From NCBI GenBank assembly GCA_964557695.1, contig CAZLAQ010000009.1, forward strand, positions 58 through 64,057: a DNA stretch of 64,000 nt, written 5' to 3'. Shown here piece by piece: positions 9,234-57,436 of the stretch. Origin of the DNA: an uncultured Candidatus Izemoplasmatales bacterium. Its GTDB lineage: Bacteria; Bacillota_I; Bacilli_A; Izemoplasmatales; Hujiaoplasmataceae. Under the pieces are notes generated by a model. It was not told the origin of the DNA and made no database searches. It worked only from the letters and a program-made list of their open reading frames with translations. Positions within the stretch are counted from its first letter, which is position 1, and each line of letters begins with the position of its first letter. The translations under genes were made by a program, and so were the position numbers.

Positions 9234-9725
9234 CTATTCCATTATTTGGAAAATCGCCAACACATCCGAAGCGCCTTCGTATGCACTCTCAACAAGGTGG
9301 TTGACCACATGGACAAACGCGGGAGTATGAATGATTGGGATATTTTCGTTGATATCTGCTAAAACATGCGTTTCGATAAGATACACTTTAATGACTGTCA
9401 AATCATCTATTATTGTCAATACTTCCTGTTTGATCGTATTGCAACTGTAACAGGATGGTCCGTAAAAATATAGATAGTAATCATCTTCAACTTGAGATAA
9501 TTGTGTCTCTGCCTCCGTCAAAAAAAGAACTGAAAAATCACTATAGTCGTACAAATCAATAGTTGTATACACCAAATACTGAGATGTAGTAGTTGTATCT
9601 ACCGTCGTCGGTGTTGTAGTAGTTATGACTAACGTTGTTGGTGCTGTAGTGGTTATCTCCTGACAGCCAAATGTAAATACAACCAGGATAACCAAAAACA
9701 TAAGCAATAATCTATTTTTCATCAT
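9234..9725 (-). CDS. Thioredoxin-fold lipoprotein with a CxxC motif and a Thr-rich stalk
   Basis: Signal peptide plus lipobox FTFG|C. Thr-rich linker TTTAPTT..TTTTPTTVDTTTTS. YFYGPSCYSC (CxxC) and a downstream HTPAF cis-Pro-like motif. Confidence 0.7.
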   Translation of the reverse strand: MMKNRLLLMFLVILVVFTFGCQEITTTAPTTLVITTTTPTTVDTTTTSQYLVYTTIDLYDYSDFSVLFLTEAETQLSQVEDDYYLYFYGPSCYSCNTIKQEVLTIIDDLTVIKVYLIETHVLADINENIPIIHTPAFVHVVNHLVESAYEGASDVLAIFQIME

Positions 9726-48166: not shown

Positions 48167-48472
48167 TTATTCATTGATTGCCTCAAGCAATAATTTGGCA
48201 AAATCTTTGCTTGTTACGCAAATCACTTTTCGGTTGGTCTTGCCGATTGCCAGGCTTAATTCATCGGTTGACAAGTCCTGATTCAGGATTACATTGTGAA
48301 ACTTGGTTTTATCTTGGATCCTTTTAGTCGTGTTGACTCCGGAATCGTTAGCAAGAAAAACGAGTGAAGCTCTGCCTTTTTTGATAAGATCGAGACTGAA
48401 CTCTTCTCCGGAAACAACCTTGTCGGCCCTGAATGCCAACCCAAGGGTTTTCAATAGTCTGCCTTTATTCAT
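48167..48472 (-). CDS. ylxQ: L7Ae-family RNA-binding protein YlxQ
   Basis: 101 aa, L7Ae-like (GLAFRADKVVSGEE...VFLANDSG), located between ylxR and infB. Confidence 0.8.
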   Translation of the reverse strand: MNKGRLLKTLGLAFRADKVVSGEEFSLDLIKKGRASLVFLANDSGVNTTKRIQDKTKFHNVILNQDLSTDELSLAIGKTNRKVICVTSKDFAKLLLEAINE

Positions 48473-48734
48473 TGCCGACCTGTCTTAATAGTTCTTCATA
48501 GATTTCATCCGGGATCTTTGTCTCAAGATGTTTTGCCAAGATATTGGTCTTCTTCGCTTTTTCGATTACGGCTTTGTTTTTCGAGACATAGGCGCCTCTG
48601 CCGTTGGCTTTTCCGGTTGGATCGAAAATCACTTCTCCGTTAGGTGTCTTGACGACACGAAGCAGTTGCTTTTTTTCAAATTTTTCACCGGTGACAACAC
48701 ATTTGCGAAGCGGGATTTTCTTTTGTTTGATCAT
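48465..48734 (-). CDS. ylxR: YlxR family (DUF448) RNA-binding protein
   Basis: PLRKCVVTGE...LLRVV...GRGAYV motif, located after nusA. Confidence 0.85.
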   Translation of the reverse strand: MIKQKKIPLRKCVVTGEKFEKKQLLRVVKTPNGEVIFDPTGKANGRGAYVSKNKAVIEKAKKTNILAKHLETKIPDEIYEELLRQVGNE

Positions 48735-48750
48735 GGTCGTTCCTCCTTGA

Positions 48751-49815
48751 TCAATAGTGGATTCCTTGAATCAAGGCATCCGTTTCGGATTTGATGTCAA
48801 TCTTCCATCCACTTGATTGGACAGCCAGCCTAGCATTTTGTCCCCTTTTGCCGATGGCAAGCGACAATTGATCGTCAGGTACGATCACTGTCGCGCTTTT
48901 TTCTTTCACGTCGATGATTACTGCAATCGACTTGGCAGGTTGGATCGCATTTGAAACCAGTTCTCTGGGATCTTCACTATACTTATAGATGTCGATCTTT
49001 TCGCCACTAAGCGAATCGATGACTTCGCGGATCCTGACACCGTTTCTTCCGAGACAAGCGCCAACTGGATCAACTTTCGGATTGTTTGAGGCAACGCAGA
49101 CTTTGCATCTGTCTCCCGGGTCTCTTGCAAGGCCCATGATTTCCACGATGCCTTCCTGAAGTTCGGGAATAGCTTGTTCCATAAGTCTTTTGACAAGATT
49201 TCTGTCAGTTCTTGATACGTAGACTTTAGGTCCTTTTGTGGTTTGTTCGACTTTGGTGATATAAACTCTAATTTGGCTTCCCATAACTAGGTCGGTACCA
49301 ACAAGGTCTCTTGCGGGAATTGATGTCTCAGTGTCATATCCTAGGAAAAGCGTGACAAAGTCGTCGTTCATGGCGACGATCTCCGCGATGACCATCTCAC
49401 CGGTCTTATCGGTGAAGATTTCATAGTTTCGCTCTCTTTCGAGTTGTTTCAGCCCCTGTGTCAAGATTTGTTTAGCACTTGAAGCGGCGATCCTGCCGAA
49501 ATCTTTCGGTGTGATCTTCACTTCAATGATATCTCCCACCCTGGCATTCTTTTTCAATTCCTGTGCGTCATCAGCAGTGATCTGTATGCCTTTTTCCGCT
49601 TCCGGATCGATGGTTTCAACTACAAGATATGTGGCAACAATCAGAATCTCGGCTTTTTCCTCGTTGAAAACTACTTTGGCATTTTGTTGGCCATTGTAGT
49701 CTTTTTTATAGGCGTTTAATAATCCCTTGCCAAAAATATCCAAGATTTTCTCTTTGGGAATATCTCTGTCTTCGGCTACTTGTTCCAATGCCTTGAAAAA
49801 TTCTTTACTAATCAT
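48751..49815 (-). CDS. nusA: Transcription termination/antitermination factor NusA
   Basis: S1 and two KH domains (GLARDPGDRCKV, LAIGKRGQNARLA). 354 aa. Confidence 0.95.
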   Translation of the reverse strand: MISKEFFKALEQVAEDRDIPKEKILDIFGKGLLNAYKKDYNGQQNAKVVFNEEKAEILIVATYLVVETIDPEAEKGIQITADDAQELKKNARVGDIIEVKITPKDFGRIAASSAKQILTQGLKQLERERNYEIFTDKTGEMVIAEIVAMNDDFVTLFLGYDTETSIPARDLVGTDLVMGSQIRVYITKVEQTTKGPKVYVSRTDRNLVKRLMEQAIPELQEGIVEIMGLARDPGDRCKVCVASNNPKVDPVGACLGRNGVRIREVIDSLSGEKIDIYKYSEDPRELVSNAIQPAKSIAVIIDVKEKSATVIVPDDQLSLAIGKRGQNARLAVQSSGWKIDIKSETDALIQGIHY

Positions 49816-50368: not shown

Positions 50369-50665
50369 TTATTCCGTTTTTTTCGTTTTGACATTGATGA
50401 CGATATCTTGAAAATCGGGATATTTCTTGAACCAGTTGATGGCATACGGGCACTTTGCGACAATCTGTTTGTTTTGGCTTTTAATGTAGTAGTAAGCAAG
50501 TTGCATCAACTTTGATGCGATTCCCTGCCCGCGTAACGATTCGTCAACAAACACATGCTTGATGTCAATCCTGGATTCATCCCTTTTCGGCAACAAGATT
50601 TCTGTCAACAATTGCTTGTTTTCATTTTCGGCAAAAATCCTTTGGGCTTCATAGATATAATCCAT
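50369..50665 (-). CDS. Small GNAT-like N-acetyltransferase (YjdJ type)
   Basis: 98 aa. VDESLRGQGIASKLM...AKCPY pattern. Confidence 0.7.
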   Translation of the reverse strand: MDYIYEAQRIFAENENKQLLTEILLPKRDESRIDIKHVFVDESLRGQGIASKLMQLAYYYIKSQNKQIVAKCPYAINWFKKYPDFQDIVINVKTKKTE

Positions 50666-51384
50666 TATTTACTAACTCGAAATTTATACATTATGATTCC
50701 GCCGGCTACTCCGACATTGATTGATTCCATCCCGTTCATTTCAATCGTTACCGAGCTTTGGGTGAGATCCAGGAGTTCTTTTCTTACACCTTGTCCTTCA
50801 TTGCCCAACAACAATCCGATTTTTTCGGATTTTATTTCAGCTTGACCCAGGGGCAAACCTGTCAAGACATCCGTGCCGATATAATGGTATTCAGGGTGTT
50901 CTTTCATGAAATCAGACAGCGTTGCCTGACGACAAGTCACGTGAAAAAGTGCTCCTTGAGTGGAACGAATGACTTTGGGATTATATAAATCAACTGTATT
51001 TTCATAAATAATCGTCTCAAAACCAAACGCTTTGGCGCTTCTGAGCAGTGTGCCTAAATTCCCCGGATCCTGAATGCCATCAAGCAATAAGATCCTGTCA
51101 CCTATTCTAAAATCAGAGGACATGTGGCAAAGCGCAAAAATCTCCTGGGATTCTTCGACATCAGATATAAGTTTAAGCAATGGCTCGCTCAGCAGGATTG
51201 TGTCTTTTTCCCAAAAAGTGACCGCATCTTTTGCGATCACTTCCAAACACAAACCGCAAGCGATGGCTTCTTTGACAAGATGCACGCCTTCGACGAGAAA
51301 TTGGTTGTTAAGAAGTCGGTATTTTTTTTGTTTAAGTTTCATCAAGTCCTTGAAGAAATTGTTTCTTGCAGAAGAAATCACCAT
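50665..51384 (-). CDS. TrmH/SpoU family RNA 2'-O-methyltransferase
   Basis: Motifs DGIQDPGNLGTLLRSA, LLLGNEGQGV, SINVGVAGGIIMY. Start trimmed to 51384 (GGTGAT SD) because the upstream ORF extension contains the terminator of the giant gene. Confidence 0.85.
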   Translation of the reverse strand: MVISSARNNFFKDLMKLKQKKYRLLNNQFLVEGVHLVKEAIACGLCLEVIAKDAVTFWEKDTILLSEPLLKLISDVEESQEIFALCHMSSDFRIGDRILLLDGIQDPGNLGTLLRSAKAFGFETIIYENTVDLYNPKVIRSTQGALFHVTCRQATLSDFMKEHPEYHYIGTDVLTGLPLGQAEIKSEKIGLLLGNEGQGVRKELLDLTQSSVTIEMNGMESINVGVAGGIIMYKFRVSK

Positions 51385-51410
51385 ATTTATCACCAAATCA
51401 ATTATAACAC

Positions 51411-51452
51411 ATAAAAAAAAGAGGAGCCAAAATTTTGCAATTTGGCTCCTCA
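51411..51452 (-). terminator. Strong intrinsic terminator after the giant lipoprotein gene
   Basis: 11-bp stem GAGGAGCCAAA/TTTGGCTCCTC followed by U8 in minus sense. Confidence 0.8.
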
Positions 51453-51466
51453 TAAATCATGAAAAT

Positions 51467-54400
51467 TTATTCAATTTCGCCGGTCTCATTTTGTGAAAAC
51501 AGACCTCCGAAGTCTTGGATGTAGGTGATCAAAGTCATGATCTCATCATAATCAGTCTCTGTCAGCATCAATAAATCGAACTCGTTAACCAAATACATCT
51601 GGTCGATAAAATTCACTACCGTTTCTGTAACATCAAGACGGAAATCTTCAATCGTCCAACCTTCATCAGGCAGGAACACTGTTGCATAGCTTGATATTAA
51701 TTCGCTAAGGAAAGTGTTGAGTTGCGATCCCGGATTACTAGTTCCGGATGCATCGAAAAAGATCGGCCCAAACAAGATCATCAGATTTTGCATTTTTTCC
51801 AGTATTTCTTCTGGAGTAGTAAATTCATTGAAATCGAAATAATAGTTCGAGAAAACTTTGTTCAGGATCATGAAGTCTTCTTTTGTCAAATCTTCAAGCA
51901 CTGCATCAAGACGGTTCATCAGCAAGGCGAGTGTTGCTTTCGCCAAGATAACATTGTCTGGATCGCTGAAGAAATCATCAAACATCGATAACATCATGAT
52001 ACCTTGCGAAGTCCGTTCAATATTGTCTTGGGCTTCTTCAATCCACATTGAATACATTTCAGCCCAATGCTGCGAATCTAGTCTGTCTCCTCGTTGCCAG
52101 TCAATGTAATAACCGAAATCATTCAACTCGGAAGTGACAACTATATATGAATTCAAATTATTCCATAAATCCACGTATTGTCTTTCTGCATTCCAATAAT
52201 TACTTGCAGCATTCAAAATCGGCATATAGACATCTTTTTCCGCTTGTCTCAAGGAATCATACAAATAATTAAAGGCATCAATGTTGGGTTCTGTTTCCAT
52301 GTTGCCCGCCCAATATAGCTCAAGTTCGAAGTATCGCTCTGAATCAAAATAGAATTCTTCGTGCGAGAAGCCTTCATGATACATTGAATTCCAGAATGAA
52401 TATACCATATCACGGTAGATTCCTTGGTTATACATTTGCTCGGCAATTGCTGCTGCCCCTGAATTTGTAATCGCCAATAATGCGATTTCAGCTGCCACAT
52501 CGGCATCGATTTGAGCTACATCATCTTCGTAATATGCTAACTGAACTTCAAAATCGAGGATGTCTTGTTCCCAAGCTTCAATTTGTTCTTCATCCGAATT
52601 ATCAGCTATCGCCATATTCAATCTGGAAATGGCAAAATTGATCAGGTACGTTGCCAAGTCTTCATTGCTAAAGCCGATGCCTCGGAGGGATCGATAGAAG
52701 TCAAGAACGTCATAGAAGGAACGCATTTCAGGCAAATTCCTCATGAACGAGCCTAACAACATAATCCGATAATAAGCTGCTTCCTCATCTTCAACTTCGA
52801 ATAGATCGATAAAATTCTGAATCTCAATCCCGATTTGTTCTTCAGTAATCTCTTCACCATACATTGATATGATCAGGTTAACAAAATCCTGATGTTCATA
52901 AAGCAATGAGATTGGGAGCGGATATACTAGGCCTTCTGGATTTTGAATATTTTGACCAATCCATTCGCCATATTTGTACAATTCGAAGATTGTAGCATAA
53001 TTCTCATCTGTCAGATTCATCGGGTCAAAGGATGCAATCTCATAGGCGTACGCCAGTAGATCTTCAACATGACTGAGAACAATTGTCTGGAGATCTGTCA
53101 TGTCTAATTCTTCGTAATCAAACATGTACATAATGTCAAAATAAAGCTCAACTGCGTAATTAAAGATGGTTTCGTAATCAAAGGTGTCAGGAACTTCTAA
53201 GGTTTCGTCATAACACAAGATATCAATCAAAGTCGACACTCCGATAATAATTTGAGCCATTGAAGCGTTGTCGACGAAGAGATTCGGAGCCAGAGCCACG
53301 AATGTATTTAATTCTTCCAAACTGATTCCATCTAATGTCACGGCAACTATGTCAAGCACATCCCGAACCCTGTCAAAATACTTGTTAATAGCTAAATTGA
53401 TTATAACCATTTTCAAATCGACTTCAACTTGTGACTGGCCTTCAGCCAAGAACTGGATTTCCAGCATATCGATAGCAAAAGCTTTGATATTTGCTTCGTC
53501 GGTAGCATCTATTGTTGAGAACAATGTTCCGATAACAGCAGATATATCCTGAATATAGCCTAGTACAGCTTCAGGAGACAAGTCGATATTTGGTCCGTCA
53601 ATTTCGGGCTCCTCAGACATGACTCTTAGTCCGAAGTTCATACTGCCCATAATCAATTCCATAAATGTGTCAAAGGTTTCTGAATTGGCAGTATTGACCA
53701 AATTGGTGATTTCATCCGCGGCAACAAGCATGACATCTATTGTCAGTTGCAAGTTATCTGGGTCATCCAAATAATCGAGGATCATTTCTGCTCTGGCTTT
53801 GTCAATGGCAAGATATTCCAGGGATTCATTATTTTCATCAATCCATTTTTCAAGATTCTGGATGTCATAGTAGAATTCTTCATAATATTCAATAGCATTC
53901 CAGTAATATTCGTTAACACCAGTCGCCTGATACAAGTCCGAAACGAATGAGTCCATTAGCGGATCATATACTAAAGTTTTCCATTCAGAATATTCGACAA
54001 GTAAGTCAATCACATCCTGATAGAGTTCTTGTTCCTCTTGTCTCAGTTGATTCCAAAGCAAATCGAAATCATCTTGTGTCTTGTACCCTATGTAAATATC
54101 TTCCAGACAGTCAGTCAAATCAAAATATGTATCGTAATCAAAGATATCACTTGAATACATCATGTCAGAAACCAAAATATTGATGTCCGCTAACATGCTG
54201 ACTTCTGTTGTCATCACATGCCAGTAAATCATGTAATTGTCAATCAGCGTCTGGTTTAAGCCACTTATCTTGAATAAAATAGTATTTTCGATATCCTGAA
54301 TATGACCTTCATCTTCGATGATCATATCTTCATAATTGGATATCCAATTCTCGTAATAATCTTTTTCAGTGTCGAAATGCCCACCAGGAGCAAGTTGTTT

Positions 54401-57244
54401 GGTAAAATTATAAATTATGAAATTCACGACGCATTGCGCCATTTCTGGACGGGTATAGCCATAATTATCAAAACCGGCAACCCAGGCTTGCACATCAGAA
54501 AACGATGTAATTGCCGTTACGCTCATTACTTGAAGCATCAGCGTTTGAAGCAGATAATATGCCGTTTCTTCATCGGTTTCATTAAGGATACCCATCAAAT
54601 CGAGGATCTTTTGGTCCGCTTCTTCCTCGGTTAGATAACCATCGGACATATTTTGTACTAGGTCGACAAAAGCCTGATGCGTGTAGCCGAATTCAATTGG
54701 TTCAAGAATCGATTCGAATCCGGAAGAAAACATCCCAGCCAAGGCCTGGCCTCTCGCCATAAATTCCTCCATTGCGATTACGCCGTCTACCCCGATAGCT
54801 ACCGGATTGTAAGCACCGATAATAGCCGATAGTTCGAGAAGTCTAGCAATATTTAGATTGGCAGCTGCCTTGACAGATGCTTTCAAAACTTCATCAGGTT
54901 CGAATTGAGTAGTTATATCATAATAAAGATTGATAACATCGTCAACAATCATGGATAGATCTAGCGAACCGTCTCCAAGCATTACATCAGCGAAATTGGC
55001 GATTGTCCAAATCATCAGGACATAATTATCGGGCCCATCATCTTCCAAAACGCTCATATCCGGGCCATCTGGTCCGTTCTGGGCAAACAGTTTCACAAAG
55101 TCAAGTATCGCTTCGACCTTGACAACATCAATCGAATTTAGGAAATTGATTAAGTTGTCGAATTCATCTAAGGCCATAGTGACATATTCTTCCACTTTCG
55201 GCAATGCCAAACTTAAGATAAGAGCTTTTTCTGTTTCTGTCATATCCTGGCTCTGGATTACACGGGTCAGAATATCTTCTCCAATTGTAACCAAGTTGTC
55301 GATTGAAATGGCTCCAGTATCAAATTTGGTTTGGAAAAATTCCAAAATATCTACAAACTTCGGAATGTAAAATGCTAAATTCTCCGGAGTCAATAGGAAA
55401 GATAAGTCAGGATTTTCATCTTCTTCCAAGTTCATTGTCAAATGCATAATTTCCATGACAAGGTCAAATAAATCAGAATCGACAGTTGTCAGTAATTCTT
55501 TGGCAGAAGTATATAAATCTTCGACCAGTTCTCTGATATTTGCCAATCCTCCCGGAGTTTGCAGATAACCATAGAAAATCGACATGGTCCGGTGTTGATC
55601 GAGCATTCTGGCTCTTTCTTGCTGAGAATTATTTATTTCTCCATGCCAATTCTGATTATCCCAAAACAAATTCTGGTAATCTCCGAAATACCATACGATT
55701 TGATTTTTTACCAGCCTATGATCTCCCGTCGTGTCGATAATACCGTCCAAAGAATCTTCAAGCGGATAATAAACCGTATCTTCATATAAGAGGTATGCCC
55801 AAAACGCATTCAGAATCGGCATATACGCTGTATATTCATCTGGATTTAATGTCAATAATAGTCCATTGTAGTCGCTCAGATACGCAGCTGCTTCCGACAG
55901 ATTAATGTCTTCATAAGTGTAATAGAAATACTGATCAATCAACTCTTGCAGTTCCTGATAGCGCTCGGAACCCTCAAAATCTACAGATCTAAAGTAATCG
56001 TTGTACAATCGATCGTATTCCATAAAATAGTTGTTTAAATTTTGAACCGATGCATCGTAATATGCGATGCATTCAGAAGGCATTGAAGTGGAAGTCGTGC
56101 AATAATTAACTACGTCACTTCTGATACCATCCATCATTATTTGATTTTCATCGACGCGATTTTGGAAATAGGCAATATCGTCATCGATGTATGAAATGTC
56201 AAAGTACTCATAACTATTTGCTATCATCGTCGACAGCATGTGCATCAAAGTATTGACAACAAATTCGTCGTCCATGTCGGGGTTGCCAGTCAATTCAGCT
56301 ACCCATGTATTGAAATCTTCCGCATTGTCAATGGTCTGCAATTCGCCAAACTTCGTTGTTACAAACGAAAGAATTTGATAAAGATGTTCTTCGGAGAAAA
56401 TACCTAGAACATATAAGTACATGTCTATTTCTTCTTCGATTTCCATCTCGGTCAATTCATCTTCTGTCATCATTTGGATCAAAGCAATCAGATCAGCTCT
56501 GTCAAATTCGCCGCTCGCATCCAAATACTCGACGTCATACACTGGTCTTACAACCATGTTTTCCGTAATGCCAGTCAGATCATGATCCCAATATACAAAT
56601 GTATATCTGTAGTGGGAGGTATCAGACAATGAAGGCCCTGCGGGAGGTGTCACGTCTCCACCATATGCAATGACTGCCTCCAAAAGGATCGTGCCATCTT
56701 CATTCAAGAAGGTAACTGTCACCTCTTCAGGAAGAGTAGCCGAAGTTTCAGTTGATTCTGTTGAAACCGTGGTTGTCGGGACAGTAGTCACAGTGGTCGT
56801 CGTAGCTGTTGTAGTTGCGGTAGTACTCACGGTCGTTGTTGCCGTGGTTGTCGGGACAGTTGTCACGGTCGTTGTGGCAGTTGTAACCGCAGTGGTGACT
56901 GCAGTCGTTGTTGCCGTGGTTGTCGGGACAGTAGTCACAGTGGTCGTCGCAGCTGTTGTAGCTGCAGTAGTTGTCACGGTCGTTGTGGCAGTTGTAACCG
57001 CAGTGGTTAACGCCGTTGTAGTTGTTCCAGCAGTTGCAGCAGTTGTTGTGACAGCTGTAGCACCTGTTGTTGTACCGGCGGTTGTAATAGCGGTTGTTTC
57101 AGCAGTTGTTACCGAAGTGTCTCCAGCAGTTGTTGTTGCAGCGGTAGTAATAAACGTTGTTGTTCCGCCACCAAAAAAATCGCAACCAACAAGGAAAAGT
57201 CCGAAAAACACAAAAAATAGTAAGGCTAAAATCTTTCCTTTCAT
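51467..57244 (-). CDS. Giant (1,925 aa) highly acidic surface lipoprotein of unknown function: Thr/Ala stalk, one Flg_new-like domain, then three paralogous ~500-600-aa modules
   Basis: SD AAGGAGGA at 57251-57258. Signal peptide with lipobox LFLVG|C (Cys21). Composition and internal repeats were read directly from the translation. No catalytic or known adhesin motif recognised. Confidence 0.85.
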   Translation of the reverse strand: MKGKILALLFFVFFGLFLVGCDFFGGGTTTFITTAATTTAGDTSVTTAETTAITTAGTTTGATAVTTTAATAGTTTTALTTAVTTATTTVTTTAATTAATTTVTTVPTTTATTTAVTTAVTTATTTVTTVPTTTATTTVSTTATTTATTTTVTTVPTTTVSTESTETSATLPEEVTVTFLNEDGTILLEAVIAYGGDVTPPAGPSLSDTSHYRYTFVYWDHDLTGITENMVVRPVYDVEYLDASGEFDRADLIALIQMMTEDELTEMEIEEEIDMYLYVLGIFSEEHLYQILSFVTTKFGELQTIDNAEDFNTWVAELTGNPDMDDEFVVNTLMHMLSTMIANSYEYFDISYIDDDIAYFQNRVDENQIMMDGIRSDVVNYCTTSTSMPSECIAYYDASVQNLNNYFMEYDRLYNDYFRSVDFEGSERYQELQELIDQYFYYTYEDINLSEAAAYLSDYNGLLLTLNPDEYTAYMPILNAFWAYLLYEDTVYYPLEDSLDGIIDTTGDHRLVKNQIVWYFGDYQNLFWDNQNWHGEINNSQQERARMLDQHRTMSIFYGYLQTPGGLANIRELVEDLYTSAKELLTTVDSDLFDLVMEIMHLTMNLEEDENPDLSFLLTPENLAFYIPKFVDILEFFQTKFDTGAISIDNLVTIGEDILTRVIQSQDMTETEKALILSLALPKVEEYVTMALDEFDNLINFLNSIDVVKVEAILDFVKLFAQNGPDGPDMSVLEDDGPDNYVLMIWTIANFADVMLGDGSLDLSMIVDDVINLYYDITTQFEPDEVLKASVKAAANLNIARLLELSAIIGAYNPVAIGVDGVIAMEEFMARGQALAGMFSSGFESILEPIEFGYTHQAFVDLVQNMSDGYLTEEEADQKILDLMGILNETDEETAYYLLQTLMLQVMSVTAITSFSDVQAWVAGFDNYGYTRPEMAQCVVNFIIYNFTKQLAPGGHFDTEKDYYENWISNYEDMIIEDEGHIQDIENTILFKISGLNQTLIDNYMIYWHVMTTEVSMLADINILVSDMMYSSDIFDYDTYFDLTDCLEDIYIGYKTQDDFDLLWNQLRQEEQELYQDVIDLLVEYSEWKTLVYDPLMDSFVSDLYQATGVNEYYWNAIEYYEEFYYDIQNLEKWIDENNESLEYLAIDKARAEMILDYLDDPDNLQLTIDVMLVAADEITNLVNTANSETFDTFMELIMGSMNFGLRVMSEEPEIDGPNIDLSPEAVLGYIQDISAVIGTLFSTIDATDEANIKAFAIDMLEIQFLAEGQSQVEVDLKMVIINLAINKYFDRVRDVLDIVAVTLDGISLEELNTFVALAPNLFVDNASMAQIIIGVSTLIDILCYDETLEVPDTFDYETIFNYAVELYFDIMYMFDYEELDMTDLQTIVLSHVEDLLAYAYEIASFDPMNLTDENYATIFELYKYGEWIGQNIQNPEGLVYPLPISLLYEHQDFVNLIISMYGEEITEEQIGIEIQNFIDLFEVEDEEAAYYRIMLLGSFMRNLPEMRSFYDVLDFYRSLRGIGFSNEDLATYLINFAISRLNMAIADNSDEEQIEAWEQDILDFEVQLAYYEDDVAQIDADVAAEIALLAITNSGAAAIAEQMYNQGIYRDMVYSFWNSMYHEGFSHEEFYFDSERYFELELYWAGNMETEPNIDAFNYLYDSLRQAEKDVYMPILNAASNYWNAERQYVDLWNNLNSYIVVTSELNDFGYYIDWQRGDRLDSQHWAEMYSMWIEEAQDNIERTSQGIMMLSMFDDFFSDPDNVILAKATLALLMNRLDAVLEDLTKEDFMILNKVFSNYYFDFNEFTTPEEILEKMQNLMILFGPIFFDASGTSNPGSQLNTFLSELISSYATVFLPDEGWTIEDFRLDVTETVVNFIDQMYLVNEFDLLMLTETDYDEIMTLITYIQDFGGLFSQNETGEIE
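51470..52897 (-). repeat. Protein-level module C of the giant lipoprotein (res 1450-1925, shorter)
   Basis: Landmarks HQDFVNLI, TEEQIGIEIQNF, DEEAAYYRIMLL, DVYMPILNAASNYW and KEDFMILNKVF. Confidence 0.6.
52898..54682 (-). repeat. Protein-level module B of the giant lipoprotein (res 855-1449)
   Basis: Landmarks HQAFVDLV, TEEEADQKILDL, DEETAYYLLQTL and SETFDTFMELIM. Confidence 0.6.
54683..56524 (-). repeat. Protein-level module A of the giant lipoprotein (res 241-854)
   Basis: Landmarks EFDRADLI, SEEHLYQIL, YTAYMPILNAFWAY and DSDLFDLVMEIM occur in the same order as in modules B and C. Confidence 0.6.
56525..56722 (-). other. Listeria-Bacteroides repeat (Flg_new / InlB B-repeat)-like segment within the giant lipoprotein
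   Basis: VTVTFLNEDGTILLEAVIAYGGDVTPPAGPSL..YRYTFVYWDHDLTGITENMVVRPVY fits the vtF..dG....v..G....P..P...gY.F.gW.......i.....v.a.Y pattern. Confidence 0.5.
56741..57166 (-). repeat. Thr/Ala-codon low-complexity tract with interleaved near-identical DNA repeats (stalk of the giant lipoprotein)
   Basis: A ~47-nt segment at 56768-56814 recurs at 56915-56961 with one mismatch. About 29 nt at 56832-56860 recurs at 56905-56933. About 35 nt at 56861-56895 recurs near 56971-57005. Confidence 0.8.
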
Positions 57245-57267
57245 AAAAATTCCTCCTTATTTATTCT

Positions 57268-57302
57268 ATTATACGAAATATATCACAATATGAATATATC
57301 AC
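57268..57302 (-). promoter_or_regulatory. Putative -10 (TATAAT) of the giant gene, preceded by two 10-bp direct repeats (GTGATATATT)
   Basis: Minus sense reads GTGATATATT-catatt-GTGATATATT-tcg-TATAAT. Repeat copies lie at 57293-57302 and 57277-57286, and the -10 at 57268-57273. Confidence 0.4.
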
Positions 57303-57404: not shown

Positions 57405-57436
57405 AGAAAAAAAGAGCCGACCGAAGTCAGCTCTCA
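57405..57436 (-). terminator. Intrinsic terminator after the beta-propeller lipoprotein gene
   Basis: GAGCTGAC-ttcg-GTCGGCTC (one mismatch) followed by U7 in minus sense. Confidence 0.65.

Follow-up and report, generated by a model that had tools for sequence, protein, structure and literature searches.

A giant, acidic, three-module lipoprotein of Izemoplasmatales: gene structure, protein family and a possible role as a surface coat

We analyzed a 64,000-nucleotide (nt) stretch of DNA from an uncultured Candidatus Izemoplasmatales bacterium (GenBank assembly GCA_964557695.1, contig CAZLAQ010000009.1, positions 58 to 64,057; hereafter, the window), which carries a giant gene with an intact open reading frame (ORF) of 1,925 codons. 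An initial annotation, made from the sequence alone, had described the product as an acidic, membrane-anchored lipoprotein with a strong Shine-Dalgarno sequence, a repetitive stalk and three related modules belonging to a family that could not be named. All testable elements of that reading held up, and none of the outcomes named beforehand as refuting it (placement in a characterized family, lack of a significant internal repeat, an interrupted ORF) was observed; the suggested role, a scaffold or adhesin, is conjectural. The coordinates of the gene and its surroundings are collected in Table 1. The consensus Shine-Dalgarno sequence lies 7 nt before the start codon, in keeping with the strong one first noted, and its GGAGG core is kept in an alignment of the corresponding intergenic regions of relatives. 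The protein has a net charge of -274 and an isoelectric point (pI) of ~4.05. Its N-terminus reads MKGKILALLFFVFFGLFLVG followed by the lipobox Cys at residue 21, i.e., M-K-G-K, then ILALLFFVFFGLFLVG, then C21, and this layout agrees with the pattern of a signal peptidase II substrate as defined here (a positively charged n-region, a hydrophobic h-region and a lipobox [LVI][ASTVI][GAS]C within the first ~35 residues). The predicted lipid anchor of the initial annotation is thus present as a signal; neither Lgt nor LspA was recognized among the ORFs scanned in the 64-kb window. Directly after the Cys, residues 22-27 (57166-57181) read D-F-F-G-G-G, and a GC-D[FL][FL]GG start was found in most complete members of the protein family described below. 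The broader pattern C-D-[FLW]-[FLG]-G-G is kept in most family members, is not found in the two other lipoproteins of the window and may be a family-specific start signal for sorting, processing or glycosylation. The three lipobox proteins of the window have pI values of 4.05-4.13 and a Lys + Arg content of 2.5-5.2%, and its cytoplasmic proteins have pI values of 5-9; on the whole, the exposed proteome of this organism seems to shun positive charge.

Table 1. Features of the giant gene, its product and its surroundings (window coordinates unless a contig handle is given).
Feature	Coordinates	Strand	Remarks
Giant gene, ORF of 1,925 aa + stop	51467..57244	-	ATG start, intact reading frame
Shine-Dalgarno AAGGAGG	57252..57258	-	7 nt before ATG, read from sequence
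Type II (lipoprotein) signal peptide, residues 1-21	57182..57244	-	lipobox L-V-G-C21
Thr/Ala/Val/Pro low-complexity stalk, residues ~22-170 (~150 aa)	56735..57181	-	imperfect 72-nt and 111-nt tandem repeats
One Listeria-Bacteroides (Flg_new / InlB B-repeat) beta domain, residues ~174-240	56525..56725	-
Module M1, residues 241-854	54683..56524	-	predicted all-alpha, acidic, net charge -90
Module M2, residues 855-1449	52898..54682	-	predicted all-alpha (22 helices, the longest of 53 residues), net charge -98
Module M3, residues 1450-1925	51470..52897	-	same module with internal deletion of ~125 aa, net charge -73
Putative extended -10 element TGaTATATT	57293..57301	-	~50 nt before start codon
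Predicted intrinsic terminator downstream of giant gene	51413..51451	-	16 nt past stop; 11-bp stem, 9-nt loop, U8
Promoter-like site of next gene	51430..51401	-	TTGGCT-18-TATAAT with TG; overlaps downstream terminator
Predicted intrinsic terminator of upstream Beta_propel gene	57412..57435	-	10-bp stem, 5 GC pairs, then T-run
Upstream neighbor, 688-aa acidic lipoprotein, Beta_propel PF09826	57457..59523	-	Pfam E 1.2e-108
Other lipoprotein of the window, thioredoxin-like	9234..9725	-
Single-module M1-type paralog	L008:10001-11893
Single-module M1-type paralog	L012:8001-9884

The bulk of the protein is a body of 1,685 residues, in which Asp + Glu make up 19.2%, Lys + Arg 3.7%, Tyr + Phe + Trp 13.6% and Met 4.4%, with 5 Cys; these figures agree with the composition noted in the initial annotation (rich in Asp, Glu, Tyr and Phe, poor in Lys, Arg and Cys). 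Its division into three ancient paralogous modules was borne out by both sequence and profile comparison. Composition-corrected BLASTP gave E values of 1.4e-11 for M1-M2 (620 columns), 1e-10 for M2-M3 (428 columns) and 1e-3 for M1-M3 (296 columns), and hhalign comparison of ortholog profiles gave probabilities of 99.4% (566 columns), 99.3% (365 columns) and 96.3% (341 columns), respectively. M3 aligns collinearly with the other two modules, apart from ~125 residues that it lacks at profile positions ~425-533; since M3 is full length in most relatives, this deletion is specific to the clade of the window. All four landmark motifs by which the modules were first recognized share alignment columns; a counterpart of the YMPILNA landmark, which had been given as missing from M2, does exist there. 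Across the family, the module at position 1 is closest to M1 of the window in 38 of 40 cases, that at position 2 to M2 in 24 of 27, and that at position 3 to M3 in 10 of 13. The triplication is therefore older than the split of these lineages, and by these sequence matches the three module types have kept their identity and their succession throughout the family. A weak self-similarity with an offset of ~125 aa was also seen within the C-terminal half of the module (profile positions ~320-577, M2 ~318-577; hhalign 23-26%). The M3 deletion is of about the same length, a hint of a smaller ancestral helical sub-unit that we do not claim.

A model of M2 computed with AlphaFold2 from nine aligned modules reached a mean predicted local distance difference test (pLDDT) score of 74, and one computed from 29 diverse modules reached a pLDDT of 85.4 and a predicted template modeling (pTM) score of 0.73. 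The latter model has 22 helices and no strands, several of the helices being 32-53 residues long, so that the helical nature predicted for the body is matched by an all-helical model. When this better model was compared with the PDB by Foldseek, the best hit had an E value of 0.44 and template modeling (TM) scores did not exceed 0.19; the other model gave a best E value of 0.075 with TM scores of at most 0.2, and no related structure was found for either. Against BFVD, the better model gave a best E value of 0.15 with TM scores of at most 0.2. SusD-like, alpha-pore-forming-toxin, apolipoprotein, spectrin-like and P116-like folds were considered as candidates and dropped, none having appeared among the Foldseek results. 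Pfam and NCBIfam scans of the whole protein, of each module and of the 29 diverse modules returned nothing recurrent (best single E value, 0.027), and sequence searches of the PDB with the module profiles A2 and A3 returned matches at chance level only (IpaB, E 0.035; annexin, E 0.066). The family that could not be named at first therefore remains without a characterized relative after searches of Pfam, NCBIfam, PDB sequences and Foldseek. Judged from these searches and the model, the module is an undescribed domain without a detectable solved relative, and the predicted modules show no enzyme-like or known binding fold.

Between the lipobox and the body lie the stalk and a single beta domain. 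The Thr/Ala stalk of the initial annotation (residues 28-168) is real and encoded by tandem repeats. The protein P0001 equals that of the window minus residues 80-116, an in-frame difference of 37 aa (nt 56897-57007) that corresponds to exactly one 111-nt unit; the length of the stalk is thus polymorphic. Across the family, N-terminal regions range from ~50 to 665 aa. On the opposite strand, a Val-rich ORF of 207 aa (56670-57293, plus strand) mirrors the Thr (ACN) codons of the stalk and is an artefact, not a gene. The Flg_new-like segment of ~66 aa was not detected when the whole protein was scanned with Pfam for PF09479, and in isolation it reached an E value of 0.03 and 14.9 bits, short of the gathering cut-off of 27 bits. 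By BLASTP, it nonetheless aligned over its whole length with at least 14 true, PF09479-annotated repeats of the protein P0005 at 30-44% identity (E 2e-12 to 4e-7), which identifies it as a genuine, though sub-threshold, repeat. In four family members (P0016, P0035, P0068, and P0090), Flg_new is found above threshold at the homologous position.

A word-index homolog search with the body returned only 4 relatives, and a contig scan based on two clade-specific peptides found one species and is uninformative on wider distribution. We also searched 1.84 billion cluster representatives with a hidden Markov model built from nine modules. Results showed 89 representatives at E <= 1e-3, and 53 of these reached E <= 1e-30. 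The named members are called hypothetical protein or, once, InlB B-repeat-containing protein, and come from metagenome-assembled genomes (MAGs) assigned to Candidatus Izemoplasmatales, Tenericutes/Mycoplasmatota, Bacilli or Bacillota. The flanking housekeeping proteins of the window are themselves 84-100% identical to those of an Izemoplasmatales MAG. Nearly all complete members combine a lipobox and a Thr-rich stalk with one to five modules of ~580 aa. The lipobox usually reads L-[AV]-G-C and is continued by D-[FL]-[FL]-G-G, and the stalk in some cases carries several Flg_new repeats; their Asp + Glu content is 13-23% and their Lys + Arg content 1-4%. We define the family by at least one ~580-aa all-alpha A2/A3 module, a lipobox with a Thr-rich stalk, and far more Asp + Glu than Lys + Arg; the protein of the window, with its three modules, is a member. 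As far as these profile matches reach, the giant protein is not an orphan; its family, which has no annotation, extends across the order Izemoplasmatales.

A multi-module member occupies the same genomic slot in all eight genomes examined. Its order is ThiI, acetyltransferase, PepF, Beta_propel lipoprotein, giant gene, SpoU-type methylase, acetyltransferase and rimP-nusA-ylxR-L7Ae-infB-rbfA-uvrC. The eight are the window, L002/L005, L006/L007, L010, L011, L001 (whose upstream flank is lost at a contig end) and two complete 2.0-Mb genomes retrieved with the Beta_propel neighbor as bait, namely L013 ('Mycoplasmatota bacterium WC30', CP134495.1; ortholog at L013:12286-18333), with three modules, and L014 (OW818673.1), with two modules and Flg_new. 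The Beta_propel gene adjoins the family member in each of the seven genomes in which the upstream flank is present. The neighborhood had been called pure housekeeping, and this does not hold, the upstream neighbor being a conserved acidic lipoprotein. The Beta_propel protein has no PDB sequence relative and no NCBIfam name, and at residues ~385-420 it contains an internal Thr/Pro/Val-rich linker (…EVPTTTVPVTTVPVTTTAPATTVP…). Single-module paralogs of the M1 type (P0048 and P0057) lie at a different conserved locus that is without the Beta_propel gene and has the order HI0933_like, DUF8436, ApbA, small ORFs, paralog and Pyr_redox_2. P0010 and P0048 come from one sample (SRR27205373), and one Izemoplasmatales genome seems to carry both a giant and a small member; no second family copy was found within the window.

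The signals around the gene point to an independent transcription unit, in keeping with the own promoter and strong terminator claimed earlier for a monocistronic gene. The putative extended -10 element is the best-kept block of the intergenic alignment of five genomes, reading TGATATATT in three of them, TGGTATATT in the fourth and TGATATGTT in the fifth, while the giant proteins of these genomes are just 22-74% identical; it is the likely promoter. A hairpin with T-run upstream is also seen in L002, L011 and L006, no L010 sequence aligning there, and would shield the giant gene from read-through. Downstream, the predicted terminator folds with -21.2 kcal/mol (z -4.78), a stability reached by none of 200 shuffled sequences; its 9-nt loop caused it to be overlooked by a pattern scan. 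By these signals, the giant gene is probably an independent unit with predicted good expression, and the Beta_propel gene would be a separate transcription unit whose functional tie to the giant gene is unproven.

The giant gene is the fastest-diverging of its block. Identity of the body falls from 74% in L002 to 41% in L001, 27% in L011, 23% in L006 and 22% in L010; for NusA the corresponding values are 100, 92, 80, 75, and 74%, and for the Beta_propel protein 89% (L002), 53% (L011), 48% (L006), and 47% (L010), with no data for L001. The ORF is intact in the relatives at 74% (P0002) and 41% (P0004) as well as in the distant orthologs (22-27%). Against the 74% relative, the ratio of nonsynonymous to synonymous substitution rates (dN/dS) is 0.17 overall and 0.16, 0.19, and 0.22 in M1, M2, and M3, respectively, at a dS of 0.89, showing that the gene is under purifying selection. 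Its content of guanine plus cytosine (40.1%) equals that of the whole window (40.2%), and it is therefore taken to be native. A mobile-element origin was ruled out by tblastn searches of phage and plasmid collections with M2, which gave no match.

Izemoplasmatales are free-living, wall-less relatives of the mycoplasmas that are widespread in anoxic sediments, and how they protect their naked membrane has hardly been studied. Cultured Izemoplasmatales lack a cell wall (PMC8397711); that paper, which describes the first isolate in culture, is silent on surface proteins. Our own search of the literature on Izemoplasma lipoproteins, PF09826 and strain WC30 turned up nothing relevant.

We tentatively propose, with confidence just short of even, that the giant protein covers a wall-less cell as a polyanionic, stalked surface coat or brush that protects it and acts as a spacer. 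By the standard lipobox rule, the protein would be exported by the Sec system, its signal peptide cut off and Cys21 lipidated, such that it would hang from the outer leaflet of the sole membrane. With no cell wall around the organism, the protein would face the environment directly. The Thr-rich spacer of ~150 aa, presumably extended and probably O-glycosylated, would lift the beta domain and three rigid, elongated helical modules off the membrane, each module having in the model ~22 helices, the longest of ~8 nm. At a net charge of about -274 and with almost no Lys or Arg, many copies, if the protein is abundant, could form a hydrated polyanionic brush or coat. Such an outer layer would repel the anionic membrane as well as anionic polymers and act as a buffer for cations. 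It would also hold enzymes, phages and particles away from the unprotected membrane, and could thereby be a functional analog of a surface layer (S-layer), a glycocalyx or teichoic acids. The fast yet constrained evolution of the gene fits an exposed, structurally constrained coat protein. Taken together, the signal for export and lipidation, the spacer of varying length, the beta domain, the rigid helical modules, the charge, the fixed slot, the putative promoter and this mode of evolution point to an exposed, stalked ectoprotein without enzymatic activity on a wall-less cell. As to high abundance and assembly into a two-dimensional lattice, the strong Shine-Dalgarno sequence, the conserved promoter and the acidic, Cys-poor composition are no more than indirect hints.

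Several points weigh against this proposal. The shape of the modules and the pattern of their surface charge are drawn from modeled secondary structure only. Beta-rich structures prevail among classical S-layer proteins, and the giant protein has no domain for lattice formation or anchoring, Pfam and NCBIfam scans showing no S-layer or anchoring domains such as SLH or CWB2 and PDB sequence and fold searches showing no likeness to a solved S-layer protein. The high contents of Tyr + Phe + Trp and of Met, together with the conserved positions of the three differentiated module types, could equally mean binding of a specific ligand or partner. Further, the two other lipoproteins of the window are equally acidic (pI ~4.1) and poor in Lys and Arg; acidity may thus be a general trait of the exoproteome of this organism and not a function of the giant protein.

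An adhesin or receptor, whose stalked helical modules bind mineral or organic particles, polymers, host surfaces or partners such as the Beta_propel protein, with any coat being secondary, strikes us as somewhat unlikely, though deserving of real weight. Flg_new/InlB B-repeats are a usual feature of surface adhesins, and some family members carry several of them; the fixed order of three distinct module types across Izemoplasmatales suggests non-redundant roles; the aromatic content of the body and the constant adjacency of the Beta_propel gene point in the same direction. However, structure and sequence searches revealed no known binding fold, an ortholog identity down to ~22% is hard to square with a conserved ligand, single-module paralogs exist at an unrelated locus that lacks the Beta_propel gene, and the giant and Beta_propel genes are predicted to be separate transcription units.

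We consider it quite improbable that the protein serves in capture or storage, i.e., that its polyanionic bundles, rich in Met and aromatic residues, sequester Ca2+, Mg2+ or other metals, or scavenge hydrophobic nutrients or lipids. High-capacity binders of the calsequestrin type and P116, a lipid-extracting surface protein of Mycoplasma, offer analogies for such functions, and the high Asp + Glu content (19%), the charge of -274 and the Met (4.4%) and aromatic (13.6%) residues within all-helical bundles would suit them. Nevertheless, the Foldseek comparison with the PDB (best E 0.44, TM 0.19) found no relative, although helical proteins that bind lipids are represented there and a close structural relative should have shown up; neither an EF-hand nor any other cation-binding motif recurred in the Pfam and NCBIfam scans of the 29 modules; and the residues conserved family-wide (DPxN, GDxSLD, and FLDS) look structural. 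Finally, the reading of the gene as non-functional, i.e., as a product of misassembly, a pseudogene or a reading frame that arose by chance in repetitive sequence, draws on the tendency of the repetitive stalk to break or collapse assemblies (the L001 contig ends within the stalk, and the 111-nt unit is an indel relative to P0001) and is refuted by the intact ORF in independent assemblies at 100, 74, 41, and ~22-27% identity, the dN/dS of 0.17 at a dS of 0.89, the ortholog in two complete genomes and the confident AlphaFold model.

Among known systems, the coat proposal recalls the haloarchaeal S-layer glycoprotein (Csg of Halobacterium and Haloferax), a large, acidic, Cys-poor protein with a lipid anchor and an O-glycosylated Thr-rich stalk that forms the sole layer of the envelope. 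The giant protein is likewise a large, very acidic, Cys-poor ectoprotein with a predicted lipid anchor and a membrane-proximal Thr-rich stalk in an organism without peptidoglycan. The two show no relation in sequence or fold, however; the anchor and stalk of Csg are C-terminal and its domains beta-rich, and its lattice is proven, whereas the giant protein is all-alpha and triplicated as known from its sequence and model. The Vsa proteins of Mycoplasma pulmonis and the Vlp proteins of M. hyorhinis are also lipoproteins of wall-less bacteria with tandem-repeat regions of variable length, and the repeats of Vsa and Vlp shield the bare membrane. These are small, repeat-dominated products of phase-variable multigene families, whereas the giant protein is encoded by one gene in a fixed syntenic slot, its bulk is made up of three folded helical modules of 480-615 aa, and its tandem repeats, though of varying number, are limited to the 150-aa stalk. 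No homology to variable lipoproteins of Mollicutes was found, the profile search having returned relatives of the Izemoplasmatales type only. With the Listeria-Bacteroides repeat proteins (PF09479), the giant protein shares one repeat, i.e., less than 4% of its length, and its 1,685-aa body is unrelated to internalins or to any Pfam family. Trypanosome VSG and the OspC, Vsp and VlsE proteins of Borrelia are small, single-domain helical coat proteins that undergo antigenic variation in parasites. Like the giant protein as predicted here, they are lipid-anchored, elongated, alpha-helical and fast-evolving, and they cover the cell surface; however, Foldseek found no similarity to them, and the giant protein comes from free-living MAG lineages of the sediment or digester type. 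By analogy, the haloarchaeal S-layer glycoproteins and the shielding lipoproteins of mycoplasmas would be nearest in function and architecture, and the giant protein is homologous to neither and lacks the testable defining features of both groups.

Large, repetitive surface lipoproteins are a familiar kind of protein; undescribed are the module with its triplication, the family and the slot that it keeps. These cells probably have no larger surface protein than the giant one, and the family offers a concrete candidate for the outermost layer of Izemoplasmatales. In its furthest extension, which we regard as unlikely, the coat proposal would make this family the building block of an unrecognized all-alpha, N-terminally lipid-anchored, stalked and polyanionic surface layer of a new fold that replaces the wall and its anionic polymers in free-living Izemoplasmatales, with sequence divergence and stalk-length variation driven by phages or grazers. 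The module would also present a new fold for structural work, and the gene could serve as a rapidly evolving marker in studies of populations and of phages and their hosts. Should the protein be merely another adhesin-like lipoprotein, the value of these findings would go no further than the annotation of a new domain family.

Two further observations concern the genes downstream. The ORF of the SpoU/RlmB-type methylase (50665-51453, minus strand; 262 aa) begins inside the terminator of the giant gene. Its orthologs have 235-243 aa in L006/L007, L010, L011, L013 and L014, and 262 aa in the closest relatives, L001 and L002; translation probably begins instead at the ATG at ~51384 (M24), which would give a protein of 239 aa. 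Further along, NusA, YlxR and L7Ae (48167-49815 versus L002:9699-11347) are 100% identical as proteins to those of the 74% relative. The dS of nusA is 0.04, compared with 0.5-0.9 for all flanking genes, and the nusA-ylxR-L7Ae tract looks like the product of recent recombination or gene conversion between the lineages of the window and L002.

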